Below are positions 10,101-61,152 of a stretch of 64,000 bases of DNA, piece by piece. The position numbers were made by a program, and so were the translations under genes. This stretch comes from Candidatus Zhuqueibacterota bacterium (GTDB lineage Bacteria; Zhuqueibacterota; Zhuqueibacteria; Zhuqueibacterales; Zhuqueibacteraceae). Under the pieces are notes generated by a model. The model saw nothing but the letters and a program-made list of their open reading frames with translations, was not told the DNA's origin and did not search any database. Positions within the stretch are counted from its first letter, which is position 1. Each line of letters opens with the position of its first letter. The DNA lies in assembly GCA_022616415.1 (NCBI GenBank), contig JAKEEU010000332.1:1367-65366 (forward strand), written 5' to 3'.

Positions 10101-11054
10101 TCATTTGAGAATGGCGTCGAAAAGAAGCTGAGCGCCCTTACGGTCGTATTCCGCCAGCTTTTGGTTGCGCTTGGCGCGATCGAACGCCGGATTGATTTGC
10201 TGCGCTTTCTCGAATTGTTGCACCGCCTTGTTGTTCACGAATTTGCTCATGATGACGTAGGCGACGCCGAGATGATTGTACAGGTCGGCGTAATTCGGAT
10301 GTTTCTCGATCACGTCTTGCAATTGGCGAATGTGGCGCCAGATCGCGGCGCTGTTGAGCTTTTTGCTATTATAAATAACTTGCAGATAAAAATCAATGAC
10401 AAAACCCAAATCCGCCGGCTTGGACACGCTGCGCTGGCCCTGCGTGAACGCGGCGTAGGCTTTTTCGTAATCGTTACGTTTGAGAAGTTCTTCGCCGCGG
10501 GAAGTGTGCTCATTTTTATATTGCGGATTGATTTTCGCCGCCTTTTCCAAATTCTCCATCACCCGTTGCTGGCAATTGACCGATAGCGCGAAATCCTCTT
10601 TGGTGGCGCCGTTGAGTACCAATGCCAAGGCGAGATTGAAGCAAGCGTCAGCATAATACGGATTGATATCGATGGCCCGTTGAAAGCGCTCCACGGCTTT
10701 TTTGCACCGCTCCTTTTTCAAATAAGCCACGCCCAAATTGTTGTAATAGTCGGCGCGCTCCGGCTTGAGGTTGATGGCCTGCTCCAATACCGCCACCGCC
10801 TCGTCATGTCTGCCGACGGCCATATACGCGCTGCCGAGGCTGTTGTAAAGCCCCGAAACGCGCGAATCGAGAATAATCGCTTCTTCAAACTCGCTGATAG
10901 CTTCATCATACATGCCTTTTTTCAAAAAGGCCTGTCCCAGCAGATTCTTCGTTTCCGCATTCTCCGAATCTTTCAGCTTCTCGGCGAGCTTGAGCAGGGT
11001 TTGGATCTCCGCTTTTTTAGAACGAACCCTCTCGTTGAAAACAAAATCGCCCAT
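10101..11054 (-). CDS. TPR-repeat protein
   Basis: Multiple TPR units (GQAFLKKGMYDEAISEFEEAIILD, YNSLGSAYMAVGRHDEAVAVLEQAINLKP, YNNLGVAYLKKERCKKAVERFQRAIDINP). Start chosen at the ATG at 11054, which does not overlap the upstream gene ending at 11140. Confidence 0.7.
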   Translation of the reverse strand: MGDFVFNERVRSKKAEIQTLLKLAEKLKDSENAETKNLLGQAFLKKGMYDEAISEFEEAIILDSRVSGLYNSLGSAYMAVGRHDEAVAVLEQAINLKPERADYYNNLGVAYLKKERCKKAVERFQRAIDINPYYADACFNLALALVLNGATKEDFALSVNCQQRVMENLEKAAKINPQYKNEHTSRGEELLKRNDYEKAYAAFTQGQRSVSKPADLGFVIDFYLQVIYNSKKLNSAAIWRHIRQLQDVIEKHPNYADLYNHLGVAYVIMSKFVNNKAVQQFEKAQQINPAFDRAKRNQKLAEYDRKGAQLLFDAILK

Positions 11055-11139
11055 AGGTAATCCTGTCCGATATAAGTAAATCCCTTGCTTGGCGCGGGCA
11101 GACCACCGCGCGTTGCCCCATACGCCCAAAGCCATCGAG

Positions 11140-47817: not shown

Positions 47818-48150
47818 ATGAAACTGGAAGACTATTTTGACTTTCTCTCGCCCGATGACATTCGCCTCAAAGGGCACCGGATCGGCATTGATAATGTGCT
47901 CGCTTATTACCTGCAAGGATACACGCCGGAGGAAATTGCCGTGCATCTTCCCCCTTTGAGTTTGGAGAAGATTTACGCCACGATCACTTATTACCACCAT
48001 AAGCGCGCCGAAGTGGATGCCTATCTCGCGCGGCTGGCGGCCTGGCGGGAACAACGATATCAGGAAGCGCAGGCCAATCCTTCGCCTGTCGTGCAACGGC
48101 TGCGCGCCATAAAAGCAGAACGGCAGAAAGCGCGAATGGGGCTGCAATGA
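47818..48150 (+). CDS. DUF433-domain protein (antitoxin-like HTH)
   Basis: IRLKGHRIGIDNVLAYYLQGYTPEEIAVHLPPLSLEKIYATITYY. Its stop overlaps the start of the next gene. Confidence 0.65.
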   Translation: MKLEDYFDFLSPDDIRLKGHRIGIDNVLAYYLQGYTPEEIAVHLPPLSLEKIYATITYYHHKRAEVDAYLARLAAWREQRYQEAQANPSPVVQRLRAIKAERQKARMGLQ

Positions 48151-48506
48151 AGATGTGTTTCCTTTTGGACGAAAACATCTCGCCGCGAGTCAAAGCGGCA
48201 TTGCTTCGTCTGAATCCGACAATTGACGTGTTGCGTGTTGGTGATCCAGGCACGCCATCATTGGGCACACTTGATCCGGAAATCCTGCGCTTCCTTGAGG
48301 TGTCGCAGCGGCTTTTAATCACCGACAATCGCATCAGCATGCCGGCGCATATTGAAGCACATTGGGCTGCCGGCGGCCATATTGGGGGATTGTTTTGGGT
48401 TCGCCCGGAAACCGCGATTGGCCGGCTGGCAGAAGAGCTGCACCTCATTTGGGAGACGAGCGAAGCCGAGGAGTGGATCGATCGGCTGGATTGGATTCCG
48501 TTCTAA
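48147..48506 (+). CDS. DUF5615-family PIN-like protein (toxin-like)
   Basis: MCFLLDENISPRVKAALLRL...LITDNR. This is the usual partner of DUF433. Confidence 0.6.
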   Translation: MKMCFLLDENISPRVKAALLRLNPTIDVLRVGDPGTPSLGTLDPEILRFLEVSQRLLITDNRISMPAHIEAHWAAGGHIGGLFWVRPETAIGRLAEELHLIWETSEAEEWIDRLDWIPF

Positions 48507-48592
48507 AAAAATTTTCGAGGCGCTCGCTTCGCTCGCGCCAAACAAATGATCGAATAATAAAATAATCAAATGACTCAAATAACCAAAGGCTC

Positions 48593-48699
48593 GATGATTG
48601 TCACGAGCGCACCGCACGCACGTAGAGGCTGCTGCCAATGCCGTGGCGATCGCAACTGCCGTAGCCGAAATCGACATACCACGCACGCCCAGCGCTTTC
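48593..48699 (-). repeat. DGR variable repeat 1 (VR1), 3' end of the TIR-DUF1566 gene
   Basis: It aligns without gaps to TR 51236-51342. By my count, 13 mismatches lie in the body plus 1 near the stop codon and 1 at the 5' edge. Every one is at a plus-strand T of TR, which is a coding-strand A. Confidence 0.9.
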
Positions 48700-49686
48700 C
48701 TTATCCGCCGTCCAAATCCACGTCTGTTGGCGATCAAACACCGGATCGATATACAAATTGCCGTGCTCTTTCGGCTCCATCAGTGACATCGCCTCTTCCA
48801 AAGTTGGCAAACGCCAATCCGTGACGCCGCCATGTTTGTTGGCGTTCAACTGGCGAATATAAGTTTCAGCCTCTTTGAACGGCACATACTTTTCCGAGCC
48901 GCCTTTCTGCCAAGTCAACCCCGTCGCGTGATCAATCACCAACGCCGCACCGGCCCTCTCGACGCTTTCATATTCATGCTGAATGCCTTTTCCCGACGAA
49001 TTCTTGTATTGGTCGTAAAAATTTTTCTCGCGCAGCATCTGTTGAACTGCTTCGGCAGACAAAGGATTGATCGGCGTGTGGCGTAGTTGGATAATGGTTG
49101 GACGAGCCGGCGGGGTTGGCTTGGAAACCGGCGGTTTGCTTTTGGGCGGCGCTGCTTTTGGTCCATTCTGCGGCGGCTTGGGTACGGAGGGCGACGCGGC
49201 TTGTGACAGGCGGGCATGAATGACGCCGGCGAGTTCCGACTCAGTATCCAAATCTTTGGCGCTGGTTTGGGCCAATTGCAAGGCGCGCAACAATTCCCGT
49301 ACGCCCTGCTCGCGGTCGGAAAAGTCGATATAAGCCGTGTTCGCCATAATCGGCGGCACCGGCGTGCCGTCAATCGGACATGGAACGATCAATTTGCGCA
49401 ACGAGATGGCGTTGGTCCACTCGAGCTTGACCCAATGGGAACCCTTCGCCGCTTTTGACCACACCAGCAGCAGGGTATTACACCACTCCAACGCATCGTT
49501 AATGCGCTCGGGCAAGTTATCGCCGCCGCGGATGCCGGCGTGATCCACCCACACTTCGGCACCGGCGTCCGCCAGCGTCTTTTCAAGGCGGCGTACCAGC
49601 GCTTTGTCTTCCCACGCATGGCTGATGAAAATGCGCGGGGGCTCAGTTTTTGGCGGTTTGGCCAACTTCGTTCTCCGGGTATTCAA
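48601..49686 (-). CDS. TIR domain, Pro-rich linker and DUF1566 (CLec-fold) protein; DGR target 1
   Basis: RIFISHAWEDKALVRRLEKTLADAGAEVWVDHAGIRGGDNL...LLLVWSKAAKGSHWVKLEW (TIR). Linker PKPPQNGPKAAPPKSKPPVSKPTPPARP. C-terminal domain TGLTWQKGG...DWRLPTLEEAMSL...WIWTADKESAGRAWYVDFGYGSCDRHGIGSSLYVRAVRS (DUF1566). Confidence 0.85.
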   Translation of the reverse strand: MNTRRTKLAKPPKTEPPRIFISHAWEDKALVRRLEKTLADAGAEVWVDHAGIRGGDNLPERINDALEWCNTLLLVWSKAAKGSHWVKLEWTNAISLRKLIVPCPIDGTPVPPIMANTAYIDFSDREQGVRELLRALQLAQTSAKDLDTESELAGVIHARLSQAASPSVPKPPQNGPKAAPPKSKPPVSKPTPPARPTIIQLRHTPINPLSAEAVQQMLREKNFYDQYKNSSGKGIQHEYESVERAGAALVIDHATGLTWQKGGSEKYVPFKEAETYIRQLNANKHGGVTDWRLPTLEEAMSLMEPKEHGNLYIDPVFDRQQTWIWTADKESAGRAWYVDFGYGSCDRHGIGSSLYVRAVRS

Positions 49687-51166
49687 TCATCATCGCGATC
49701 AAGCGTTGTTTCGTGTGGCGCAATTCATGGCCGGTTTCTTCCACCACCACGACCGGCAGGCGCTGCGACTTGAGTTTGCTCAACACGGCGCTGATTTGCT
49801 TTTTCGGAAAGCCGCACGCCGGCGAAAAGCCGCGCCACTTTGCATTTAGGTTCAGACCGGCGGCTTGGTGCAGAACCTCCGCCTGCCAGCCGTAGGCTTC
49901 AAAATAGCTTCCCACCTGAACAAGACACAGATGATGGGGAAATGTTCGCAGCAGCCAGCGAATCTGCTGCCGCAAATACCGCGTGCGCCGCAGGGCCTGA
50001 TCCAATCTAACGATTTTATGTTTTTTTCGCAAAAAGAATTTTTGCAGAAACACGTGTTGTTGGAATAATTTTTCCACCAGCCGGCCGGTCTGCGCGTGGC
50101 GGAAAAGGCCGAGATAGGAATTGATCGTGGCGAGCGTCTTTTCCAACGTCTCGAGATCGAAGCGATAAGCCGTGCAGCTTTCGGTGTGGATGGCCAACTT
50201 TGGCCGAAGCTGCCGCAGTTTTTCCTTCAAATTGCCCACGTTGCGCCGGCGCACCAATTGATAACCCGGCCGCACGATACAACCCGCAAAGTCGATGCCG
50301 CCGTGCACCGGTCCGATTTGCATCATCTTTTCATGGACTTCCAACTGCAGCGTGGTTTTGAGAAAATCTCGAATCGCCTGCTGCCATTGCGCCAACTGCC
50401 AGCGGTGGCGCGCCAGCAAAATGAAATCATCGACGTAGCGCAAATAGAAGCGGCATTTGAGCACGTGCTTGACGAATTGATCGAGCGCATTCAAATAGAC
50501 GTTGGCAAAAAACTGGCTGGTGTAATTGCCGATGGGCAATCCGCAGCCTGGCGGCGCGCCAAAGAGCGTTTTGTGCGGCGGAATGCGATGGCGCAAGCCC
50601 TCAGCGTCTTGCAGCTCGTAATCTTGGGTGGGATCGTGAAATACCAGCACGCGCACCAGCCACAGCAGCTCGTGCGGGTGCGGGCAGTGTTTGGCCAGCA
50701 TCTCAAACAGCAACTGCCGGTTGATGGTCATGAAAAAATTCTTCACGTCCATTTTGAGAAAAAAGGCGGGGCGCTTGCCATTGGCGGTGAGGCGGCGCAG
50801 CAGCGTTTGCAGGGTTTGCGCCGCAGCCAATGGACCCTTGTCGGAGCGACAGGCATAAGAATGGTGGATGAAAATTTTCTCCCACACCGGTTCGAGATGG
50901 CTGCAAAGCAGGTGGTGGACGACGCGGTCACGAAACGCGGCGGCAAACACCTCCCGCGCCTTCGGCTTGCTGGTATAAAAGCACACCGAAGTCGAAGGCT
51001 GGTAACGCCGCTCCCGCAGCTCGTCGACGAGCGCCACGAGGTTCTCTTCGTGGTTCTGCTCGAAATCCAGCGCGCTCGGCTTGTTGCGTTTGTTGCGGCG
51101 ACACGCCAGATACGCTTTGTACACCTGCGGGAAATCGAACAAGACTGACCGGTCACTTAAGGCCAT
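49643..51166 (-). CDS. DGR reverse transcriptase with a C-terminal MutS-domain-I-like extension
   Basis: RT motifs FFLKMDVKNFF, the DGR hallmark LPIGNYTSQFFANVYLNALDQF, and FYLRYVDDFILLA. 507 aa. The tail reads VQVGSYFEAYGWQAEVL...GFPKKQISAVLSKLKSQRLPVVVVEETG. Confidence 0.9.
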   Translation of the reverse strand: MALSDRSVLFDFPQVYKAYLACRRNKRNKPSALDFEQNHEENLVALVDELRERRYQPSTSVCFYTSKPKAREVFAAAFRDRVVHHLLCSHLEPVWEKIFIHHSYACRSDKGPLAAAQTLQTLLRRLTANGKRPAFFLKMDVKNFFMTINRQLLFEMLAKHCPHPHELLWLVRVLVFHDPTQDYELQDAEGLRHRIPPHKTLFGAPPGCGLPIGNYTSQFFANVYLNALDQFVKHVLKCRFYLRYVDDFILLARHRWQLAQWQQAIRDFLKTTLQLEVHEKMMQIGPVHGGIDFAGCIVRPGYQLVRRRNVGNLKEKLRQLRPKLAIHTESCTAYRFDLETLEKTLATINSYLGLFRHAQTGRLVEKLFQQHVFLQKFFLRKKHKIVRLDQALRRTRYLRQQIRWLLRTFPHHLCLVQVGSYFEAYGWQAEVLHQAAGLNLNAKWRGFSPACGFPKKQISAVLSKLKSQRLPVVVVEETGHELRHTKQRLIAMMIEYPENEVGQTAKN

Positions 51167-51206
51167 TGCACGAGGAAAGATTTGCGCCTAAAAGTGACCG
51201 GTCAGT
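51144..51206 (-). promoter_or_regulatory. 15-bp inverted repeat bracketing the RT start codon, in the TR-RT spacer
   Basis: ACTGACCGGTCACTT (51144-51158) is the exact reverse complement of AAGTGACCGGTCAGT (51192-51206). The 33-nt loop contains the RT ATG (51164-51166). Confidence 0.6.
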
Positions 51207-51235
51207 AGCTTTCCAAACACGCTCGAACAGCGGAT

Positions 51236-51342
51236 GATGATTTTCACGAGCGCACCGCACGCACGTAGTTGTTGTTGCCAATGTCGTTGTGATTGCAATT
51301 GCCGTTGTTGAAATTGACATACCACGCACGCCCAGCGCTTTT
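51236..51342 (-). repeat. DGR template repeat (TR)
   Basis: A non-coding copy of the VR lying between avd and RT. In the VR frame it reads KSAGRAWYVNFNNGNCNHNDIGNNNYVRAVRS*, with 9 AAY codons. Confidence 0.9.
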
Positions 51343-51459
51343 GCCCCTCTACTTGTGGCCCGTCTTTTCGGGCCCACGTCCGGCCAATCCCGCTGGTGCA
51401 GGTATGGCCGCCGGCGAACTAATGCCCCGAGAGTCGGGGCGAGAGGGGTGCACAATCAT

Positions 51460-51864
51460 CTAATTGGCGCGCGCTTGCCCCGCACCGGTGTGCGAGGAAG
51501 ATTCTGGCCGTCCACTTTTTTGCAGCGTTGACTTCAGCCAGCCTTCGTTCTGCCGGCATAAGTCCACCACCTGATTCACACTATAGTGATACGAATCAAA
51601 ATTTGCAAAGGCTTTTTCTTCTTTGGCGATGCGCAAAGTGATTTTCAAATCTTCCAACAGCTCGCGCAGCTTTTCAAGTTGCGGCGCTTTCTCGGTCGCG
51701 TTGTTGGCGCGCACGATCTGGCGGAGCACCTCGTGCGAAAGCTGGCGCAGCTCCGTGCCGAGGCTGTATTTGTGGTAACGGCTGAAATGGCGCACGACCT
51801 TCTCGAAGTAAACGGTAAGATCGAAAGCCTTTTTGTAAATGGGAAGATGCTTGTATTGAGCCAT
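51460..51864 (-). CDS. avd: DGR accessory variability determinant (Avd; four-helix-bundle, 23S rRNA-IVS-protein-like)
   Basis: A 134-aa basic helical protein (LPIYKKAFDLTVYFEKVVRHFSRYHKYSLGTELRQLSHEVLRQIVRAN) immediately upstream of TR-RT. Confidence 0.8.
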   Translation of the reverse strand: MAQYKHLPIYKKAFDLTVYFEKVVRHFSRYHKYSLGTELRQLSHEVLRQIVRANNATEKAPQLEKLRELLEDLKITLRIAKEEKAFANFDSYHYSVNQVVDLCRQNEGWLKSTLQKSGRPESSSHTGAGQARAN

Positions 51865-52047
51865 GGCTATTCTCCGCGAGAATGCGAAGTCGGACTTGGT
51901 CAGAGGAATTTTCTAAATTTGAACGATCGTTGTGACCAAGTCCGACTTCACTTTTTCCAAAAAATTTTCGAGGCGCTCGCTTCGCTCGCGCCCAAGCAAA
52001 TGATCGAATTATAAAATAATCAAATGACTCAAATAATCAAAGGCTCA

Positions 52048-52153
52048 ATGATTGTCACGAGCGCACCGCACGCACGTAGATGACGTCGCCAAAGCCGTGG
52101 CGACTGCAATAGCCGAGGACGAAATTGACAGACCACGCACGCCCAGCGCTTTC
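52048..52153 (-). repeat. DGR variable repeat 2 (VR2), 3' end of the NTPase-DUF1566 gene
   Basis: It aligns without gaps to TR 51237-51342. By my count, 15 body mismatches plus the same 2 edge mismatches seen in VR1. All are at TR coding-strand adenines. Confidence 0.9.
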
Positions 52154-53911
52154 TTTGTCCGCCGTCCAAATCCACGTCTGTTGGCGATCAAACAACGGAT
52201 CGATGTACAAATTACCCTGCTTCGTTTCGCGTTCCATCAACGACATCGCTTCTTCGAGAGTCGGCAAGCGCCAGTCGTTGAAACCGGCGTACTTTTTCGC
52301 GTTCAATTCTTTAACGTAATCCTGCGCTTGCTCGAAAATCAACTGGTCAGGTGAGCCGGATTGTTGCCAACTCAAACCGGTGGTTATATCAAAGACTAAA
52401 GTTTCCTTGTCTCGGACATAAGGCACATAAACATGCGGAACTCCTCGTCCACTTTTGTTCCAGGATGAATCAAAGAAGCCATAGCGTTTGATCATTTCCT
52501 GAACTTGCGATGAAGATAACGTATACGGCTCACGGCGGAACGACCGAGTTGGCACACCGGCAAGCTGCACCAGCCCAAGCAAATCAGCTTTTGACAGATC
52601 GAGCGGCTTTGGCATATTGGCTTGTACCATCTCCCACAAAAATCGCTTCATCTGATCCGTCCAGCTCAATTCCGGCCGTTCCGCCGCCGGCAGCGCGAGA
52701 AACCGCTTGACCGATAAATATTCCATAATCGAGCGATGGGCGAACTTGAAATTGTCTTCGGCATCGCGGTTGAGCAAGGAGCGGCTGGTGAGCTTCCAGC
52801 CTTCCAGTTTAATCCCAAACTTTTGTGCCAGCGGCTCAATGGCCTCATACGGCAGACGCTCTTCCTTCTTCTCTTGGCGCTGCACAAACAATTCGATGGC
52901 GAGGCGCTCGCAAAATTCGCGCAGCGGTTCTTTTTGCAATCCTTCCACGCGGCCCACTTCGCGATCTAACCACCCTTCCACCGCTTCTTCGTACAACTGA
53001 AACGAATAGCTAAAATCACGACCGCTGGCGAGAAAATTATCAATCAGCGCCAGCAGCATTGGTCGCACGGTCAACTGAGGAATTTTGCCTGCCACTTGGC
53101 GCGCCTGCCGACGTTTGCGCCAGCGCCAGAACCGATAGCGCAGTTGTAAATACTTTTTCACTTGCGCGTCATCAAAGGGCGAGAGATAAAGCTTGTGAAA
53201 AAAGTACTCACCCGTTTCTTTCGGCCCGATGGTGCCCAATTTGACCACGCCGGTGCGGCCCGGCTCTTCTTCGGCGCGCGGGAAAAACTGGGTGCGGCAG
53301 GTGATGAGCACGCGGCGAAACTCGCGGGTCAGGTCGCACAAATCCAACACCCGCTGGCGGTGGTCGACGATGGCGAGCGTGTCTTCGTCCAACGCATCGA
53401 GAAAGAGCACGGTGTCGGATTTTGCGGCAACGGCTTTGATGCGGGCATCGGCATCTTTAATGCCCAGCGGGATCACTTGCAACTGAAACGGTTTACGGAA
53501 CCGGCGCAGGTAGCGGGCGTAGTAATTCAACTGGAAGGCGGTTTTGCCCATGCCGGAGTCGGCGAGCAGGAGCAGATACTTGAATTCGGTGTCTTCGTCG
53601 AGCAAACGGTCGATGGCGGAAAACAAATCTTCGCGCGAGGCATACACGCCACGAATTTCCGGGCTTTGGGCGGGATCGACGCTCTGGCAATACGGCCGGA
53701 GATAATAGCGCATCGCGCGCTCGATATCTTCCGGCGTATAGAGCGTCGCACCGAGTCGCTTCCGCAACGAGCGGCGGTCGTGCCATTGTTTGAGCTTCGC
53801 CAGCAAGCCCAGCAGGCCGCCGCCCCCAATGATGCTCAAAATGGTATCGAGATGATCGAGCCAGGTTTTGGGATCAAAAAGCAGATTGGTGAGGGTGGTA
53901 TCAGGCGGCAT
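52055..53911 (-). CDS. NACHT-like P-loop NTPase with an N-terminal hydrophobic helix and C-terminal DUF1566 (CLec-fold) domain; DGR target 2
   Basis: Walker A LLLLADSGMGKTAF, Walker B VLFLDALDED, an N-terminal ILSIIGGGGLLGLLAKL, and a C-terminal TGLSWQQSG...DWRLPTLEEAMSL...WIWTADKESAGRAWSVNFVLGYCSRHGFGDVIYVRAVRS. Confidence 0.85.
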   Translation of the reverse strand: MPPDTTLTNLLFDPKTWLDHLDTILSIIGGGGLLGLLAKLKQWHDRRSLRKRLGATLYTPEDIERAMRYYLRPYCQSVDPAQSPEIRGVYASREDLFSAIDRLLDEDTEFKYLLLLADSGMGKTAFQLNYYARYLRRFRKPFQLQVIPLGIKDADARIKAVAAKSDTVLFLDALDEDTLAIVDHRQRVLDLCDLTREFRRVLITCRTQFFPRAEEEPGRTGVVKLGTIGPKETGEYFFHKLYLSPFDDAQVKKYLQLRYRFWRWRKRRQARQVAGKIPQLTVRPMLLALIDNFLASGRDFSYSFQLYEEAVEGWLDREVGRVEGLQKEPLREFCERLAIELFVQRQEKKEERLPYEAIEPLAQKFGIKLEGWKLTSRSLLNRDAEDNFKFAHRSIMEYLSVKRFLALPAAERPELSWTDQMKRFLWEMVQANMPKPLDLSKADLLGLVQLAGVPTRSFRREPYTLSSSQVQEMIKRYGFFDSSWNKSGRGVPHVYVPYVRDKETLVFDITTGLSWQQSGSPDQLIFEQAQDYVKELNAKKYAGFNDWRLPTLEEAMSLMERETKQGNLYIDPLFDRQQTWIWTADKESAGRAWSVNFVLGYCSRHGFGDVIYVRAVRS

Positions 53912-54027: not shown

Positions 54028-55206
54028 TCACACCAGCGGCACCAGCGGGCCCATGTCGAACAAGAAGCGCTGGATGTATTCCGGCGTGATATTGTCGCGG
54101 CCGGTCAGGCTGCGGCCAAATTGCAAAACCATTTGGTGCCCGAAGGTGTAACGCAGCTCGCGAATGTCTTCGGAAGTGAGGCCGCCGGAGAGCACGGGCA
54201 TGCACTTTTTCAGGCCGAACCAATTTTGGTTGAAGCGCTGCGGGTTTTGCGTGGTGAAATTTTCGGCCAGCAGGTTGGTGTGCAGCGCCACAACTTGGGC
54301 TTGGGTTTCAATCATGTCGCCGGTGATGGAACCGATCTCCACCAAGTCGGCGCCAGCCAAGCGCGCCAGCTTGCCGATGGTGGTCATGGCGATGCCGTGC
54401 TTTTTGTTGCGGGCGACGGCGCCGTGCGAGGTGCGGTCGGCGTAAATAATCAATCCGGGGAATTCATTGCGCAACATTTGCAGCACGCCGAAGCCGCTGG
54501 TTTGGAAATCGATCGCCACGCCGTTGCCGCCGGAGTTGATAACGAAGCGCGTGCGTTTGAGCACGACGTCGCCGGGGCCGGTGACATTGGGAAAATAAAG
54601 CTTGGGCAGCTCCGATTTTTTCACGGCCTCTTGCGTGAGCGCGAGCACCGCTTTGACGCGCTCTTCAAACCGATTGTTGGGCAAGTCGGTCAACTGATGG
54701 CTATCGCGAATGATGTCGCACCCGCCCATCAAAGCGGCAGAGGCTTTTTTCTTATAGGTTTCCAAATCCACGCCGACTTCCGGCGCAATCAACGCCGAGA
54801 CCAGCGGCCGCTCCGGACTGCCCAATAGCTCGTGCAATGCTTCGCTGCCCTGGGCCGGGCCGCGAAAACTCTTTACCCACCATTCGGGAAAACATACGTC
54901 GAGCAAACGCAAATTGGCAATATTCGCAAGGCCGAAAATTCTGCCGGCGACGACAGAAAGCACTTGGGGAATATTGCCGGCCTCGAAGTGCTCGGCGGGA
55001 TAGGCCACTTTGACGTTGTTGCCGTCAATCGCATACGCATGGGCGGCGAGAGCGGCGCGGTTCGCGCCAGCGCTGGCGTCAATCGCGGCTTTGCTGCACA
55101 ATTCTTCGGTCACGGATTCCAACGTCTTGCCGTTGGTTGGCTCGAGGTGATAGCTGCACAAAAGGTCGGTGGGTTGGGGTTGGTAAGCTTTGTCGATATA
55201 GGGCAT
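54028..55206 (-). CDS. RuBisCO large-subunit-like protein (form IV RLP-type) with a non-canonical active site
   Basis: Collinear with RbcL-family proteins (IPQVLSVVAGRIFG, GGCDIIRDSHQL at the GGxDFxKDDE position, DRTSHGAV, PVLSGGL). Start at the ATG at 55206. Confidence 0.75.
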   Translation of the reverse strand: MPYIDKAYQPQPTDLLCSYHLEPTNGKTLESVTEELCSKAAIDASAGANRAALAAHAYAIDGNNVKVAYPAEHFEAGNIPQVLSVVAGRIFGLANIANLRLLDVCFPEWWVKSFRGPAQGSEALHELLGSPERPLVSALIAPEVGVDLETYKKKASAALMGGCDIIRDSHQLTDLPNNRFEERVKAVLALTQEAVKKSELPKLYFPNVTGPGDVVLKRTRFVINSGGNGVAIDFQTSGFGVLQMLRNEFPGLIIYADRTSHGAVARNKKHGIAMTTIGKLARLAGADLVEIGSITGDMIETQAQVVALHTNLLAENFTTQNPQRFNQNWFGLKKCMPVLSGGLTSEDIRELRYTFGHQMVLQFGRSLTGRDNITPEYIQRFLFDMGPLVPLV

Positions 55207-55431
55207 GGTCGAGTTCCTTTCCCGAGTGATGGATTTTTTTGGTTTCATGAAACAAAAGAAATATCGCAAAAAATCGGACAAATGTCAACAGCGAGATCCG
55301 GATTTTAAAATAATTTACGGGAGTGAGTTATAGCTTGACAATCTCGCCAGATTCTGCTATCTTTAAAATCAGGCAGCAGTCCCAATAAGCCTCTTCGATT
55401 TTCACTCGTGCATTATGAAAAAATTAGCAGT

Positions 55432-55947: not shown

Positions 55948-56217
55948 ATGAGTGAGACAATTAAAGCGATTTATAAAAATGGCATCATTGAGCCTGCTGA
56001 ACCATTAAAGATCGCCGAAGGCACTGAAGTTTATGTGGTTGTGCCTAAGACCACTAAATCTACGGCATATCGCACAGTTCTTGAGGAACTCAGAAGAGAG
56101 GGGTTTCTTGATTTTGATTCCCAGACCATCGCTCAGCCATTTTCCAAGCGCCGGCGTGGGCGTATTCAGGGTAAACCGGTGTCGGAGACTATTATTGAAG
56201 ATCGAGGGCCAAGATGA
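55948..56217 (+). CDS. DUF104/AF2212-type antitoxin (VapB-like)
   Basis: MSETIKAIYKNGIIEPAEPLKIAEGTEVYVVV is the canonical N-terminus of this antitoxin family. It overlaps the PIN gene start. Confidence 0.7.
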   Translation: MSETIKAIYKNGIIEPAEPLKIAEGTEVYVVVPKTTKSTAYRTVLEELRREGFLDFDSQTIAQPFSKRRRGRIQGKPVSETIIEDRGPR

Positions 56218-56675
56218 TCCATTATTTTGACAGTAGTGCAGTCGTTAAAATTTATCTTCAAGAAATTGGCAGCGATTGGGTTGAAACTGTCTGTTTACAA
56301 AATTCCGAGGGCGAAATAGGCATTTCGCAAATTGCCGGAGCCGAAGTGGTTGCTGCGATAAACCGGCGGCATCGTACTGGTGATATAGATGCCGCAACGT
56401 TAGAGACTGCCCTCGACGCATTTGAGAGTGATTTTTCTCGCTTCTTTGTCAGAATTCCTGTTTCGTTGGCGATTATTAGGCAAGCGATGAGACTCCTTCG
56501 ACGCCATCCCTTGCGTGGTTATGATGCTGTTCAATTGGCCACGGCCTTGGAGTGGGCAGATCGACTAAATGCATTTGGTTTAGCTAAACCAATTTTTGTC
56601 AGCGCCGATAACCTCCTGAATCAAGCAGCTATACAAGAAGGGTTGCAGACCGAAAATCCCAACGCTCATCCTTGA
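56214..56675 (+). CDS. vapC: PIN-domain toxin (VapC family)
   Basis: MIHYFDSSAVVKIYLQE (first acidic residue), LRGYDAVQLATAL, and FVSADNLLNQAA. Confidence 0.75.
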   Translation: MIHYFDSSAVVKIYLQEIGSDWVETVCLQNSEGEIGISQIAGAEVVAAINRRHRTGDIDAATLETALDAFESDFSRFFVRIPVSLAIIRQAMRLLRRHPLRGYDAVQLATALEWADRLNAFGLAKPIFVSADNLLNQAAIQEGLQTENPNAHP

Positions 56676-57812: not shown

Positions 57813-58195
57813 TTGTTCAAACCCTCCTCGACCTTTTGAATGAATTCTTTAGCATGATTGACCATCCGTCGGACCGTTTTCGCTTTTGGGGAGTCAAACT
57901 GATACTGGGCCGTATTGCGTAATACAAACGCATCTGCGAGCCAAGTACCAAAGTTGCCTGGTTAGCGGCTTCGGTTTTTGATGAGTTCTTCCGTGAATTT
58001 CGACCGCAATTCACTATGTTTCCACGTTGGCCTGTCCAAACCCTCGTATGCCAAAGCTGCTCGCGCTGCCCAGAAGAGCGCTGCATACGAACAAATGGCG
58101 GAAGCATTAAAATCGTTATTTTTTACAGCCAAGTCGGCAGTTCGTGAAAATTCTTTCGCACGGCCTAAAATTTCTTTTGGCGTCAAATGCGCCAT
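57809..58195 (-). pseudogene. HEPN-domain gene, copy 2, interrupted by an in-frame TAA at 57962-57964
   Basis: My in-frame translation reads MAHLTPKEILGRAKEF...ELRSKFTEELIKNRSR*PGNFGTWLADAFVLRNTAQYQFDSPKAKTVRRMVNHAKEFIQKVEEGLNK. It is collinear with copy 1, where the stop position is Tyr (RTRYPKNFGTW). The ATGA overlap with the partner gene is conserved. Confidence 0.75.
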
Positions 58196-58223
58196 CATTC
58201 CCTCCTCAAAGTTCCTTAATGCC

Positions 58224-58252
58224 AATATAGCAGAGAAAACTAAAATTGTCAA
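58224..58252 (-). promoter_or_regulatory. Sigma70-type promoter, copy 3 of the repeated promoter module
   Basis: On the minus strand: TTGACA (58252-58247), a 17-nt spacer, then TATATT (58229-58224), upstream of HEPN copy 2. Confidence 0.5.
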
Positions 58253-58356: not shown

Positions 58357-61152
58357 ATGGACGATAGAATGATCGAGCCGCTTATTGAACGCCGCGTCGA
58401 GAAAACGGAGAAGCTCTCTCCGCTCTTCGCGGCCAATTGGCCTGAAATCATCACGCAGGCGGCTTCCCGCTCCAACGGCGCGAGTTTTTATCGCTGCGCG
58501 CTGCAAGTGAATACGCCGTTTCAAGACAATTTCAAAGGCTTTGACTCCCGCCATCGTCGCCGCACGGCGACTCATCAGCGTGACTATGCGCTGGCGCTGG
58601 CGAAAGCTTGCAAAAAAATCGGCATCGATGTGATCGGACTATGTGACCATAACAGTGTGGATTACATCGAAACCGTTCGCCACGAACTCGGGCAGGAAGG
58701 CATCATTGTTTTTCCCGGCTTCGAGGTGGCGAGCACCGAAGGCATTCATATCTTATGCTTGTTCAGCCCGCACGCTAATGTTAAAGATCTCGATCATTTG
58801 CTCACCGAATTGGACTTGCCCCCGAAAGAACGCTGGACGAACGGCGAGGGGCAGGCACCGCGACAATCGAAACGCTCGTTCCCACAAATTTTGGAACGTG
58901 TGCAACGCAATCGCGAAGGCATTTGTATCGCGGCCCATGTTGATCGCGAAAACGGCTTGCTCGATGAATGCTCCAAAACCACACGCGTACAATATTTTAC
59001 CGATCCCAGTCTGCTTGCGGCCCAAATTGCCGGCCGGCGGGAAGATTTGACGGATTTCTACCGCAAAATCGTCAACGGTGAACTCGATCATTATCGCCGG
59101 CAACAATCCATCGCGCTGATCAACTGCCTAGATGTTTACAATTTGAAAGACTTGAACCAGCCCGTATGCAGCACCTGGATCAAAATGTCCTCGCCGTCCA
59201 TCGAAGGCTTGTGGCAGGCGTTTCTCGATCCGGATTCGCGGCTGCGCCTGCTCTCGGAGGAACCTCCCAAACCTCACGCCGAATTGGTCGCCATCACTTG
59301 GCAGGGCGGCTTTCTGGATGGCGGCATGATTCATCTCAACGAAAATCTCAATTGTCTGATCGGCGGCCGCGGCGCTGGCAAATCCACCGTCATCGAAAGC
59401 TTGCGCTACGTTTTGGATCTCAAGCCGATTGGCGAGGAGGTTCGCCGGTCGCACGCCGGAATTTTGCAACAGGTGCTGCGCACGGGCACGCATGTCTCTT
59501 TGCTGGTGCGGTCATATTTTCCTTCGCCTTGTCATTATCTCATCGAGCGCACGTATCCCGAAGCGCCGGTGGTGCATGACGAAGAGGGCAACGAGCTGCC
59601 CATTCACCCCGGTGAGATTTTGCCCGGCGTGGAAATTTTTGGCCAGCACGAGATTGCGGAGATTGCAAAAAATCCGGCGAAGCAATATCAGCTTTTGCGC
59701 CGCTTCCGCAACGTCGAAGCGGTCGAGCTGGAAGCGACGAAACAAGAGCTATGTCGCGCTCTCGAAGCCAATCGCCTCGAGCTGGCAAAGGTGGAAAAAG
59801 AGATGGAGGCCGTCGAAGAGAAACTCAGTCGCTTGCCCGCGGTCGAAGAGAAACTGCGGCGTTACAAGGATCTCGGCATTGAAACGAAATTGCAAGAACA
59901 ATCCCTGCTCGCGCGTGAAGAATCCCTCGTCAAGGCCAGCCGCCAGCGCTTGCCGGCGTTCAAAAAAGCGCTCGAGTCGCTGCATCAAATTTTGGCGCAA
60001 AGCCTCACTCGTCGTGACGCTGCCGCCATGGCCGATTTGCCCAACGCCGATCTCATGGAACGTCTTGACGACGCGCTTGCCAACCTCGAGGAGCAGGCGC
60101 AGAACAGCGTGGATGAGATGACGAATGCGCTGAAGCAAGCCGAAGACGAGCTCTTGGGTATTTCCGGGGAATGGGAAAAACGGCGGCAGGCCAAGCGCAG
60201 CGAGTACGAAAAGACACTCCGCGAACTGCACAAAGAGGCGATTGACGGCGCTGATTTCATGAAGCTGCGAAAAGAGTACGAAATGCTCGTACCATTGCAA
60301 AAAGAGGCGCACAAATTAAAGCAACAATGCGACGATTTACTGGCGCAACGTCACCAGCTTTTGGAGGAATGGGAAGCGGCCAAATCGCAACTATTTGAAT
60401 TCGACCAGGAAGCCGCCGACAAAATTTCAGAGGAGTTGGCCGGACGCGTGCGGGCAAGGGTGGTGAGGGAGTTTGACTTGACTCCGCTGATCGAGCTGTT
60501 GAAAAGACACATTAAAAATTTAAAAACGCCCCCACTTTATAATCGTCTGCACGAAAAAAATTTGATTTCGTTGGCTGACTTCATTCAGCACGTCCGTGAG
60601 GGCAAAGAGACGCTACGCGATATTTATGGCTTGCAGGATAAAACCGCGGCGGCGCTGGCAGGCCTCTCCGAAAAAGCTTTGCGCGAAATGGAAGAGCTGG
60701 AGCTGCCGACCACGATTCGTCTCGAGTTGAACACAGCACTCCAAGGCCGGGCGCCGAATTGGAAGGAGATGCAGGAGCTTTCCACCGGCCAAAAAGCGAC
60801 GGTGATTTTGCTGCTGCTGTTTTTGGAAAGCGAAACGCCGTTAGTGATCGACCAGCCGGAAGACGATCTCGACAACAGCTTCATTGCGGAGACCATCATC
60901 CCCACACTGCGCCAGGAGAAACGCCGGCGGCAATTTCTTTTTGCGACGCACAACGCCAATCTGCCGGTGTTGGGTGACGCCGAGCTGATCGTGACACTCG
61001 AGGCTTCCGGCGAAGGCGAGACCGGTTCTGCAAAAATTAACGACGAGCATATTGGCTCGATTGACCTGGCTTCGGTTAAATTCCAGGTGGAGCAAATTTT
61101 GGAGGGCGGCAAGCAGGCGTTTGAGATGCGGCGGGCGAAGTATGGGTTTTGA
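58357..61152 (+). CDS. PHP-domain phosphoesterase fused to an SMC/Rad50/RecF-like ABC ATPase with a long coiled-coil insert
   Basis: PHP-like motifs GLCDHNSV, FPGFEVASTEGIHILCLF and IAAHVDREN. Walker A LIGGRGAGKST (~59362-59388). About 330 aa of E/K/L/Q-rich coiled coil. Signature LSTGQKA, Walker B LVIDQPEDDLD, and FATHNANL. Confidence 0.75.
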   Translation: MDDRMIEPLIERRVEKTEKLSPLFAANWPEIITQAASRSNGASFYRCALQVNTPFQDNFKGFDSRHRRRTATHQRDYALALAKACKKIGIDVIGLCDHNSVDYIETVRHELGQEGIIVFPGFEVASTEGIHILCLFSPHANVKDLDHLLTELDLPPKERWTNGEGQAPRQSKRSFPQILERVQRNREGICIAAHVDRENGLLDECSKTTRVQYFTDPSLLAAQIAGRREDLTDFYRKIVNGELDHYRRQQSIALINCLDVYNLKDLNQPVCSTWIKMSSPSIEGLWQAFLDPDSRLRLLSEEPPKPHAELVAITWQGGFLDGGMIHLNENLNCLIGGRGAGKSTVIESLRYVLDLKPIGEEVRRSHAGILQQVLRTGTHVSLLVRSYFPSPCHYLIERTYPEAPVVHDEEGNELPIHPGEILPGVEIFGQHEIAEIAKNPAKQYQLLRRFRNVEAVELEATKQELCRALEANRLELAKVEKEMEAVEEKLSRLPAVEEKLRRYKDLGIETKLQEQSLLAREESLVKASRQRLPAFKKALESLHQILAQSLTRRDAAAMADLPNADLMERLDDALANLEEQAQNSVDEMTNALKQAEDELLGISGEWEKRRQAKRSEYEKTLRELHKEAIDGADFMKLRKEYEMLVPLQKEAHKLKQQCDDLLAQRHQLLEEWEAAKSQLFEFDQEAADKISEELAGRVRARVVREFDLTPLIELLKRHIKNLKTPPLYNRLHEKNLISLADFIQHVREGKETLRDIYGLQDKTAAALAGLSEKALREMEELELPTTIRLELNTALQGRAPNWKEMQELSTGQKATVILLLLFLESETPLVIDQPEDDLDNSFIAETIIPTLRQEKRRRQFLFATHNANLPVLGDAELIVTLEASGEGETGSAKINDEHIGSIDLASVKFQVEQILEGGKQAFEMRRAKYGF

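Follow-up and report, generated by a model that had tools for sequence, protein, structure and literature searches.

Bacterial proteins that couple a signalling module to a hypervariable lectin-type tail, rewritten by a diversity-generating retroelement (DGR), have been described in several recent surveys, and here we compare with them a DGR cassette from a Candidatus Zhuqueibacterota (KSB1) bacterium. The cassette lies in a stretch of 64,000 nucleotides (positions 1,367 to 65,366 of the forward strand of contig JAKEEU010000332.1, assembly GCA_022616415.1), called the window below, and all coordinates are positions within it. Our subject is the second of its two diversified proteins, target 2 (52055..53911, minus strand; 618 amino acids (aa), ATG start), which consists of a hydrophobic N-terminal helix, an NTPase of the STAND (signal transduction ATPase with numerous domains) type and a DUF1566/Lcl_C lectin-type tail.

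Wu et al. (2018) described DGR targets that join TIR, NTPase and other domains to FGE-type lectins, and counted two targets in 13% of DGRs; the DUF1566 class is treated there as CLec2, and fusions to signalling modules are listed only for FGE-sulfatase-type targets, categories b7-b11 (PMC5758913). Kaur et al. (2021) reported widespread STAND NTPase-FGS proteins with variable N-terminal effectors, TIR among them, which are often linked to a DGR reverse transcriptase (RT) and an accessory protein, and explicitly likened them to hypermutating adaptive receptors (PMC8195603). Doré et al. (2024) described an RT clade whose DGRs commonly have two targets that combine STAND with a C-type lectin domain (CLec), some with transmembrane (TM) segments or TIR, and discussed their cytoplasmic versus periplasmic placement (PMC10907252). 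A role in antigen sensing has been suggested for STAND-CLec proteins that are diversified by DGRs (PMC10907252, PMC8195603). The concept of a hypermutating bacterial immune sensor is therefore not new, having been published between 2018 and 2024, and an earlier note on this DNA, which read the cassette as a receptor repertoire resembling the nucleotide-binding leucine-rich-repeat receptors (NLRs), coincides with it: the idea is supported by the DGR and STAND evidence given below and was already in print (PMC5758913, PMC8195603, PMC10907252).

Four groups of known systems invite comparison at the level of architecture. DGR3 and DGR6 of Thiohalocapsa PB-PSB1 (RT clade 5D; PMC10907252) likewise have typically two targets, a central STAND module and a C-terminal diversified CLec (predicted in target 2 from its DUF1566 match), with TM segments or TIR on some targets and a proposed role as antigen sensors; by contrast, the host here belongs to KSB1, the lectin is of the DUF1566/Lcl_C instead of the FGE-sulfatase kind, the divergent nSTAND3-like NTPase stands on one target only, the other being a TIR-CLec protein, and the RT has a MutS_I-like C-terminus. 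The STAND NTPase-FGS conflict systems (PMC8195603; 2020, PMC7159879) share the succession of N-terminal effector or adaptor, STAND and lectin-fold sensor, the frequent association with an RT and an accessory protein of four helices, the presence of several copies per genome and the proposed analogy to adaptive receptors, but they usually bear EAD/Death-like adaptors or enzymatic effectors, whereas the family of target 2 has only a hydrophobic helix and a conserved region of about 60 aa. Avs5 (AVAST type 5, a SIR2-nSTAND3-repeat sensor), an antiphage system whose NTPase domain is nSTAND3 (10.1101/2025.07.08.663546), is alike in that nSTAND3 is also the best Pfam match of target 2 and in its tripartite logic with a variable C-terminal sensor, and among the other Avs/bNACHT antiphage STANDs, Avs4 (8dgf) is one of the structural matches of target 2; unlike these, target 2 has neither a PADLOC match nor a SIR2 or nuclease effector, its nSTAND3 match is sub-threshold, and a hypermutated lectin replaces the helical repeats. 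Legionella LdtA and other CLec2 (DUF1566) targets (PMC5758913) share the DUF1566-type variable repeat (VR) at the extreme C-terminus, the avd-TR-RT architecture and template repeats (TRs) rich in AAY codons, but LdtA, like most targets of category 'd', is a surface or adhesin protein, whereas here DUF1566 is fused to signalling modules (STAND, TIR) that are predicted to be cytoplasmic.

Distinctive in the present cassette are thus its KSB1 host, the DUF1566 lectin on signalling modules of presumed cytoplasmic location, a divergent nSTAND3-like NTPase with only a putative TM helix at its N-terminus, the division of STAND and TIR between two targets, and the RT-MutS_I fusion; full-text literature searches found no description of such a system in the KSB1 phylum. 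By examining repeats, conserved motifs, structure models and the loci of relatives, we arrive at a reading towards which we lean, largely by analogy, namely that target 2 is a membrane-tethered, NLR-like immune sensor reprogrammed by its DGR. If so, a compact sensor of the NLR-like type, complete and to all appearances intact, would have its ligand-binding surface rewritten by targeted hypermutation.

A variable repeat in the lectin tail

Repeat comparison identifies a TR of 106 nt (51236..51341, minus strand) and two homologous repeats at the ends of the two targets: VR2, likewise of 106 nt (52047..52152, minus), in target 2, and VR1 (48593-48698, minus) in target 1 (48601..49686, minus), a protein of 361 aa in which a TIR domain (TIR_2, E 6.3e-25) is followed by a Pro-rich linker and a DUF1566/Lcl_C tail (E 1.3e-20). 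The TR has 31 adenines, and every internal mismatch falls on one of them, 16 of 16 in VR2 and 14 of 14 in VR1, a confinement which over 105-106 nt has a hypergeometric P of 1.2e-9 for VR2 and 2.5e-9 for VR1; the sole extra difference between VR2 and the TR is the final base, at the end of the homology. The coding changes are confined to codon positions 1 or 2 of AAY, CAC, GAC, ATT and TAT codons.

The codon table and the column entropy of the family together delimit 13 variable codons in VR2, from S594 to I611 (52079..52132, minus), interspersed with the scaffold residues W593, V595, F597, G600, C602, G608 and Y612-VRAVR. Among 69 lectin-bearing relatives, 11 of the 13 variable positions have an entropy above 3 bits, the other two being S594 (2.1) and F607 (2.6), and the scaffold positions V595, F597, G600 and C602 do not surpass 0.6 bits. 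With 24 adenines in its coding-equivalent part and nine AAY codons, the TR could encode about 1.6e14 protein variants per target, and adenine substitution never yields a stop codon.

A GC-rich 25-mer, CTACGTGCGTGCGGTGCGCTCGTGA, is identical in the TR, VR1 and VR2 and occurs exactly three times in the window, against an expectation of zero by chance. It is followed in both VRs by CAATCAT, giving an initiation of mutagenic homing (IMH) site that is identical in VR1 and VR2 (52048..52079, minus, in target 2), and in the TR by AAATCAT (IMH*, TGAAAATCAT), so that TR and IMH differ at one base; the homology between TR and VRs ends just past these heptamers. By the published definition of IMH and IMH* (PMC5758913), this pair is the expected arrangement.

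The repeat is embedded in a lectin-type module common to both targets, aa 465-618 of target 2 (52058..52519, minus), of which Lcl_C (DUF1566) covers aa 505-617 (E 8.9e-20; 71.6 bits against a threshold of 34.9). The C-terminal 154 aa of target 2 share 58% identity with the corresponding tail of the TIR target, and from L568 to the end L573/V is the lone difference between the targets outside the variable codons, bearing out the earlier note's view that the tails are paralogous and their last ~60 aa nearly identical outside the VR. Between VR1 and VR2 there are 16 nucleotide differences, and 10 of the 13 variable codons specify different residues; the two specificities are for this reason likely to be independent. 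The proposal that one TR serves two different modules, TIR and NTPase, each with its own specificity, is in this way upheld, all mismatches of both repeats being at TR adenines.

One stretch of the two VRs is alike: at 52094-52102 in VR2 and 48640-48648 in VR1 the TR codons CAC AAC GAC have become CGC CAC GGC (R-H-G), a three-codon change absent from the orthologous locus L001 (handles of this form denote loci of relatives). Common history or selection is suggested by the shared codons, though not in a statistically compelling way; gene conversion between VR1 and VR2 was considered as well, and the five identical changes among the eight co-mutated adenines were judged too few to argue for it.

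Directly 3' of the stop codons of both targets lies a conserved non-coding element of about 95 nt (51959-52054 at VR2 and 48506-48600 at VR1, both minus), nearly identical at the two sites and confined in the window to these two flanks. It consists of GACAAT, four TTTG/TTTT blocks with a phase of about 9-10 nt, a direct repeat of the GC-rich GCGAGCG and then CTCGAAAATTTTTT. GACAAT and the phased TTTG/TTTT blocks adjoin all 14 VRs examined, from six loci, and are not found at the TR flank, and the GC repeat with its CTCGAAAATTTTTT tail is present in about half of these VR flanks. A hairpin or cruciform was tried as an explanation and rejected, since only a 5-bp GGCGC/GCGCC stem can form and the folding energy is indistinguishable from that of shuffled sequences (z -0.1 and -0.35); a terminator scan did not flag the element. 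Given no significant hairpin and no terminator call, we describe it by its sequence alone. Its role may lie in target recognition, or it may act as a terminator common to the two targets. In the Bordetella phage an inverted repeat assists retrohoming (PMC3240598), and by analogy the element may be the equivalent of that repeat in this clade.

Judged from these repeats, target 2 is, with at least a very high probability, a genuine DGR variable protein that can be targeted at present.

The NTPase module

The GMGKT and FLDALDE motifs, the hydrophobic segment and the DUF1566 tail that the earlier note had read in the 618-aa open reading frame are all where it had placed them. Structure models, Foldseek and Pfam nSTAND3 together delimit a STAND module at aa 107-440 (52592..53593, minus), composed of a nucleotide-binding domain (NBD), a helical domain and a winged helix, and its motifs are strongly conserved in an alignment of 44 relatives that are 38-70% identical to target 2. 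Invariant in that alignment are A117, D118, G120, M121, G122 and K123 of the Walker A motif ADSGMGKT (aa 117-124; 53540..53563, minus); D172, A173, D175, E176 and D177 of the extended Walker B motif VLFLDALDED (aa 168-177; 53381..53410, minus); R206, T207, Q208, F209 and F210 of the sensor-1 strand ITCRTQFF (aa 203-210; 53282..53305, minus); an RPMLL motif; and K389, F390, H392, S394, E397 and L399 of the winged-helix His motif KFAHRSIMEYL (aa 389-399; 52715..52747, minus). The DxxDE form of Walker B is said to be typical of NACHT in the definition of Koonin and Aravind, and K389-F390-x-H392-x-S394..E397 resembles the FxHxSxQE motif of the NACHT winged helix.

Ahead of the NBD, a conserved stretch of about 60 aa that is peculiar to this family, recognised in the alignment, connects it to the N-terminal helix (aa 45-106, RSLRKR...YYxxPxCQxxDP; 53594..53779, minus); D79 and P80 are invariant in it, Y70, P73, C75 and Q76 nearly so, and it matches no known domain.

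AlphaFold2 (AF2) models of the full-length protein (mean predicted local distance difference test, pLDDT, 73) and of the NTPase only (aa 90-460; pLDDT 82.8, predicted TM-score, pTM, 0.76) both contain the NBD, the helical domain and the winged helix. R206 ends the strand 200-205, helices occupy 248-348 and 355-364, and a beta-hairpin at 380-390 is followed by the helix that starts from KFAHRS. Compared with the PDB by Foldseek, the top 28 matches of the full-length model and the top 17 of the NTPase-only model are all NACHT NLRs, with E-values of 1e-9 to 1e-6 and alignments of 360-440 columns; NLRC4, NLRP3, NOD2, NLRP5, NLRP7, NLRP9 and NAIP5 are the top names, with E-values of 2e-9 to 4e-7 for NLRP5, NOD2, NLRP3, NLRC4, NLRP7 and NLRP9. 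Next in rank are ORC/Cdc6, other AAA+ proteins and Avs4 (8dgf), at 1e-6 to 1e-5. Animal NLRs (NLRC4, NLRP3, NOD2, NAIP5) are thus the closest solved folds (E 1e-9 to 1e-7), and with target 2 they share Walker A, the DxxDE Walker B, the sensor-1 Arg and the winged-helix His; they differ in having leucine-rich repeats, CARD and PYD, all absent from target 2, and in that their diversity arises by germline paralogy, whereas here it would be somatic and generated by a retroelement.

Pfam matches of the relatives point the same way: at E<=0.01, 26 of the 44 match nSTAND3 (best E 1.7e-5), 14 nSTAND5, three nSTAND1 and two NACHT (E about 0.004), and precomputed annotations of nSTAND3 exist for some relatives. 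On motifs and models together, the NTPase is, at the least, very probably a NACHT-like STAND related to nSTAND3; by the available models it is placed outside Pfam NACHT and the characterised Avs/bNACHT families.

The N-terminal segment and its predicted topology

A Gly-rich hydrophobic segment, ILSIIGGGGLLGLLAKL, was located by the Kyte-Doolittle scale at aa 24-40 (53792..53842, minus) and is a putative anchor with the N-terminus outside and the C-terminus inside (N-out/C-in). Its flanks carry charges of -3 on the N side and +5 on the C side. In 93 of 111 near-full-length relatives a 19-residue segment with a Kyte-Doolittle value of at least 1.6 occupies the same position (median start residue 21), and among the 93 segments the Gly content is 14% and small-xxx-small-xxx-small patterns are present in 54. 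The C-side flank is the more positive one in 93 of 93, with means of +4.85 on the C side and -1.34 on the N side, and because of this positive C-side flank the positive-inside rule predicts N-out/C-in. The flank charges thereby predict that both the ATPase and the hypervariable lectin are in the cytoplasm, a placement that also fits because the ATPase needs the cytoplasm in any case. The single hydrophobic segment of the earlier note is accordingly present, and the topology check it proposed gives a family-wide answer with the CLec predicted to be cytoplasmic, but the segment of target 2 itself is marginal as a TM helix: the protein is probably membrane-tethered, with its own insertion uncertain.

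Relatives and the recurrence of paired targets

The NTPase family is large, with more than 1,000 matches in a word-indexed search and 283 in a pattern scan of species-representative genomes. Its members come from KSB1/Zhuqueibacter, Calditrichota, Acidobacteriota, Chloroflexota, Gemmatimonadota and Proteobacteria, and one metagenome-assembled genome (MAG) often has several paralogs; the 90% cluster of target 2 itself contains a single sequence. C-terminal to the NTPase the relatives carry DUF1566, FGE-sulfatase, pentapeptide repeats, Clp_N or no recognised module, and such a swappable C-terminus is, by analogy, the usual behaviour of the sensor position of STAND proteins. Lectin-fused members cluster in KSB1-like genomes, and the fusion occurs in about 38 of 83 fetched loci.

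The closest counterpart of the cassette is L001 (69% protein identity), where a RuBisCO-like gene, NTPase-CLec, Avd, TR, RT and TIR-CLec stand in the same chromosomal context, with PIN, AF2212-like, SpoU and HEPN genes on the flanks. Within its TR-homologous core, 10 of 10 changes in VR1 and 17 of 18 in VR2 are at adenines (the exception being one C-to-T change), and its VR content differs from that of the window VRs. L033 (48% identity) has the order NTPase-CLec, Avd, RT-MutS and TIR-CLec, as in the window, and the mismatches of the NTPase-linked VRs to the TR are adenine-biased in L015, L024 and L060 also. Since the same cassette order and its variants recur in L001, L033, L024 and L060, the pairing of a STAND-lectin with a nucleotide-processing effector-lectin on one TR is, judged by gene order, a conserved and evolutionarily maintained design; the comparison of paired targets that had been recommended thus yields a recurrent pairing of STAND-CLec with effector-CLec.

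Variants of this arrangement deserve separate description. In L024 (4531-5748) and L060 (12183-13427) the second target has a module resembling Nuc_deoxyrib_tr (a weak match, E 0.0075, in L060 only) in place of TIR; a coiled-coil-like linker joins it to the same DUF1566 tail, and it therefore appears that effector modules are swapped on a constant diversified sensor. L015 (450-8100, KSB1) has four DUF1566 targets round a single Avd-TR-RT, namely a short CLec-only protein, an NTPase-CLec and two TIR-like-CLec proteins; the three VRs that were aligned to the TR (ends at 682, 4787 and 5873) are adenine-biased, and the downstream TTTG element is found at all four. When other NTPase-CLec paralogs of the same MAGs, MAG_5 and M3-S bin.56, were scanned with the TRs of L024 and L060 for targeting in trans, no match was found, so that a single TR serving many genes is not supported in those MAGs. 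In L005 (Candidatus Zhuqueibacter pondensis, 10700-11123) the RT is interrupted by an in-frame stop and its core is truncated, and in L004, L014 and L020 only MutS_I-like remnants of the RT stand beside the NTPase-CLec and TIR-CLec genes; these four are apparently decaying DGRs.

Proposed mechanism and alternative explanations

Avs and NLR proteins, together with what Kaur et al. and Doré et al. have proposed, offer analogies from which we can sketch how such a receptor might act. A short acidic N-terminal tail and the Gly-rich helix would tether target 2 to the inner membrane, N-out/C-in. The diversified lectin surface would bind an intracellular ligand, probably a protein or glycoconjugate derived from an invader, and autoinhibition would be released; ATP-dependent oligomerisation would follow and would cluster the N-terminal helices, leading to membrane damage or creating a signalling platform. 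The TIR-lectin target 1 would be a second, independently specified sensor-effector, probably one that consumes NAD, and the two targets would together form a small reprogrammable set of NLR-like receptors.

Several results weigh against this sketch. The hydrophobic segment of target 2 reaches 2.1 on the Kyte-Doolittle scale over 15 residues but a maximum of only 1.47 over 19 residues, below the usual 1.6, and it is short (15-17 aa), contains four consecutive Gly and is modelled by AF2 with low confidence. The best-matching NTPase family, Pfam nSTAND3 (PF20720; aa 107-216, E 0.0031), scores 17.7 bits, below its cut-off of 27.2, and Pfam NACHT (PF05729) does not match target 2 at E<=0.1; for these two reasons the accurate label is 'NACHT-like STAND, nSTAND3-related', and the earlier note's NACHT-like assignment stands on the invariant motifs and the NLR folds but not on a NACHT profile. 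The matches to AAA_16 (E 0.024) and to the NACHT-type EruA model of NCBIfam (E 0.025; 12.7 bits, where the cut-off is 1000) are weak as well. PADLOC returned no defence model for target 2 at E<=0.1, and searches with Pfam and PADLOC revealed no recognisable enzymatic effector domain in it. The Foldseek matches to NLRs have TM-scores of only 0.38-0.44 at 11-16% identity, a search of PDB sequences with the family profile returned no match at E<=1, and the lectin tail is poorly modelled (pLDDT 36-60) and met only noise, with no detectable relative, among PDB sequences. Strain-level VR variants were sought in JGI metagenome contigs with exact patterns that had N at each TR-adenine position, and none was found; the neighbours of the cassette are toxin-antitoxin modules and housekeeping genes, with no clear defence operon.

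A bolder version of the same idea holds that the family, previously uncharacterised, is a membrane-anchored bacterial NLR whose Gly-rich helix is itself the death effector, forming a pore on oligomerisation like the ZAR1 resistosome, and that in KSB1-like bacteria a dedicated DGR clade, marked by the RT-MutS_I fusion and the phased-TTTG element, reprograms this receptor somatically beside a TIR or deoxyribosyltransferase-like effector-lectin. We hold this version as a tentative and rather unlikely one.

The helix might instead be no more than a tether, with target 2 serving as a sensor or scaffold that works jointly with target 1, whose TIR domain (or, in related cassettes, the Nuc_deoxyrib_tr-like domain) would be the output enzyme. 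The recurrent pairing of the two proteins fits such a division of labour: a STAND-CLec and then an effector-CLec are grouped round one RT in the window, L001, L033, L024 and L060, the second N-terminus always being of a nucleotide-processing type, target 2 has no recognisable effector domain of its own, and Kaur et al. (2021) found STAND-FGS proteins paired with separate TIR proteins (PMC8195603). However, targets 1 and 2 have no common adaptor domain besides the lectin module, their VRs differ at 10 of 13 codons and would not be expected to recognise the same epitope, and most family members, including the tandem NTPase-CLec paralogs of L003, have no TIR gene nearby. It is an explanation that we doubt.

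Immunity itself may be the wrong frame, if target 2 is a diversifiable switch for self or environmental ligands, acting in kin or social recognition or in regulation in a bacterium of complex lifestyle. Besides the failure of every PADLOC model to match target 2, the chromosomal position of the locus, its synteny between genomes and its proximity to a RuBisCO-like gene and a SpoU methylase are congenial to this idea, and regulatory roles were proposed earlier for cyanobacterial DGR targets (in work cited within PMC10907252). Yet the TIR of target 1 matches the Thoeris, Argonaute-TIR and retron-TIR defence models, a STAND fold with swappable C-terminal sensors is typical of conflict systems, and toxin-antitoxin and HEPN genes border the cassette. 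A role outside immunity therefore seems to us quite improbable.

The possibility that VR2 is a relic copy of the lectin tail, no longer rewritten by the DGR, would account for the lack of VR variants across samples in the metagenome scans and has precedents in the decayed RTs beside NTPase-CLec genes in L005, L004, L014 and L020; but a relic would gain changes at bases other than adenine, and in 105 nt none exists beyond the 16 at adenines, the IMH and the ~95-nt downstream element are intact and nearly as in VR1, and the RT, Avd and TR are all intact as well. We regard decay of VR2, which the earlier note had named together with a disrupted IMH as a finding that would overturn its view, as very improbable. 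A generic P-loop NTPase of AAA+, ORC/Cdc6 or KAP type, which the sub-threshold STAND profiles and the ORC/Cdc6 and other AAA+ entries among the Foldseek matches (E 1e-6 to 1e-5) might suggest, is scarcely tenable against NACHT NLR E-values that beat those of ORC/Cdc6 by 2-3 orders of magnitude in both Foldseek searches, the STAND/NACHT signatures of a DxxDE Walker B and a winged-helix FxHxS..E, and relatives that match nSTAND3, nSTAND5, nSTAND1 and NACHT, with no KAP among the 19 Pfam families matched.

The membrane-tethered, DGR-reprogrammed sensor thus remains the reading we prefer, and the cassette is a practical candidate for reconstitution because it is small (about 5.4 kb), has two different output modules and follows a conserved design. 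It could be used to examine whether intracellular lectins diversified by a DGR truly serve as antigen sensors, and could show how a STAND switch whose N-terminus has only a putative transmembrane helix signals.

The cassette and its genomic setting

All five elements of the cassette are on the minus strand, in the order target 2, Avd, TR, RT and TIR target 1. The Avd accessory protein (51460..51864) is recognised by Pfam bAvd (E 1.3e-11) and by NCBIfam DivGenRetAVD (E 3.6e-13, a match below the NCBIfam cut-off). The RT (49643..51166, 507 aa; RVT_1, E 3e-15) has IGNYTSQ at aa 212, an instance of the DGR signature [I/L]GxxxSQ, and the catalytic YVDD at aa 244. Its stop lies beyond the start of target 1, so that the two genes overlap by 44 nt (49643-49686), and this overlap, together with the common strand and gaps of 69-190 nt, suggests a single operon with translational coupling. 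The 64-kb window contains no additional paralog of either target and no additional copy of the TR or VR. Target 2 is identical to the NCBI protein 'DUF1566 domain-containing protein [candidate division KSB1 bacterium]' on the 171-kb MAG contig CDARHB010000094.1.

The C-terminus of the RT (aa 408-480; 49727-49945, minus) is a module like MutS domain I (Pfam MutS_I, E 3.8e-6) with the motif VQVGSYFEAYG, of which the form in the clade is (I/V)Q(I/V)G-x-[YF][YF]-E; it recalls the mismatch-binding GDFYE of MutS. Module and motif are kept in all full-length RTs of the clade, and among the related RTs they are conserved in L001, L005, L007, L015, L018, L024, L033 and L060. Only three RTs with a weak MutS_I match were reported by Wu et al. 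in 2018 (PMC5758913).

Directly upstream of target 2 and on the same strand lies a gene for a RuBisCO large-subunit-like protein of 417 aa (54028-55281, minus), syntenic in L001. The flanks of the cassette (47818-48506, 55948-56675, 57962-58252 and 58357-61152) hold toxin-antitoxin-like pairs, DUF433/DUF5615 and AF2212-like/PIN, as well as a small HEPN protein and a 931-aa AAA_21/SMC-like ATPase; such toxin-antitoxin-like, HEPN and ATPase genes also border the orthologous cassette of L001, and by their predicted functions they lend the surroundings something of the flavour of a defence or addiction island.

Two further observations concern small open reading frames. One of 100 aa that runs across the TR (51153-51455, minus) was rejected as a gene, being a translation artefact of the template; its equivalent in L001 has been called as a gene with a weak Lcl_C match, likely an annotation trap. 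In L002 (7945-8601; a KSB1 bin labelled Deferribacteres), one open reading frame of 66 aa and three consecutive ones of 51 aa form a tandem array directly downstream of the NTPase-CLec gene.

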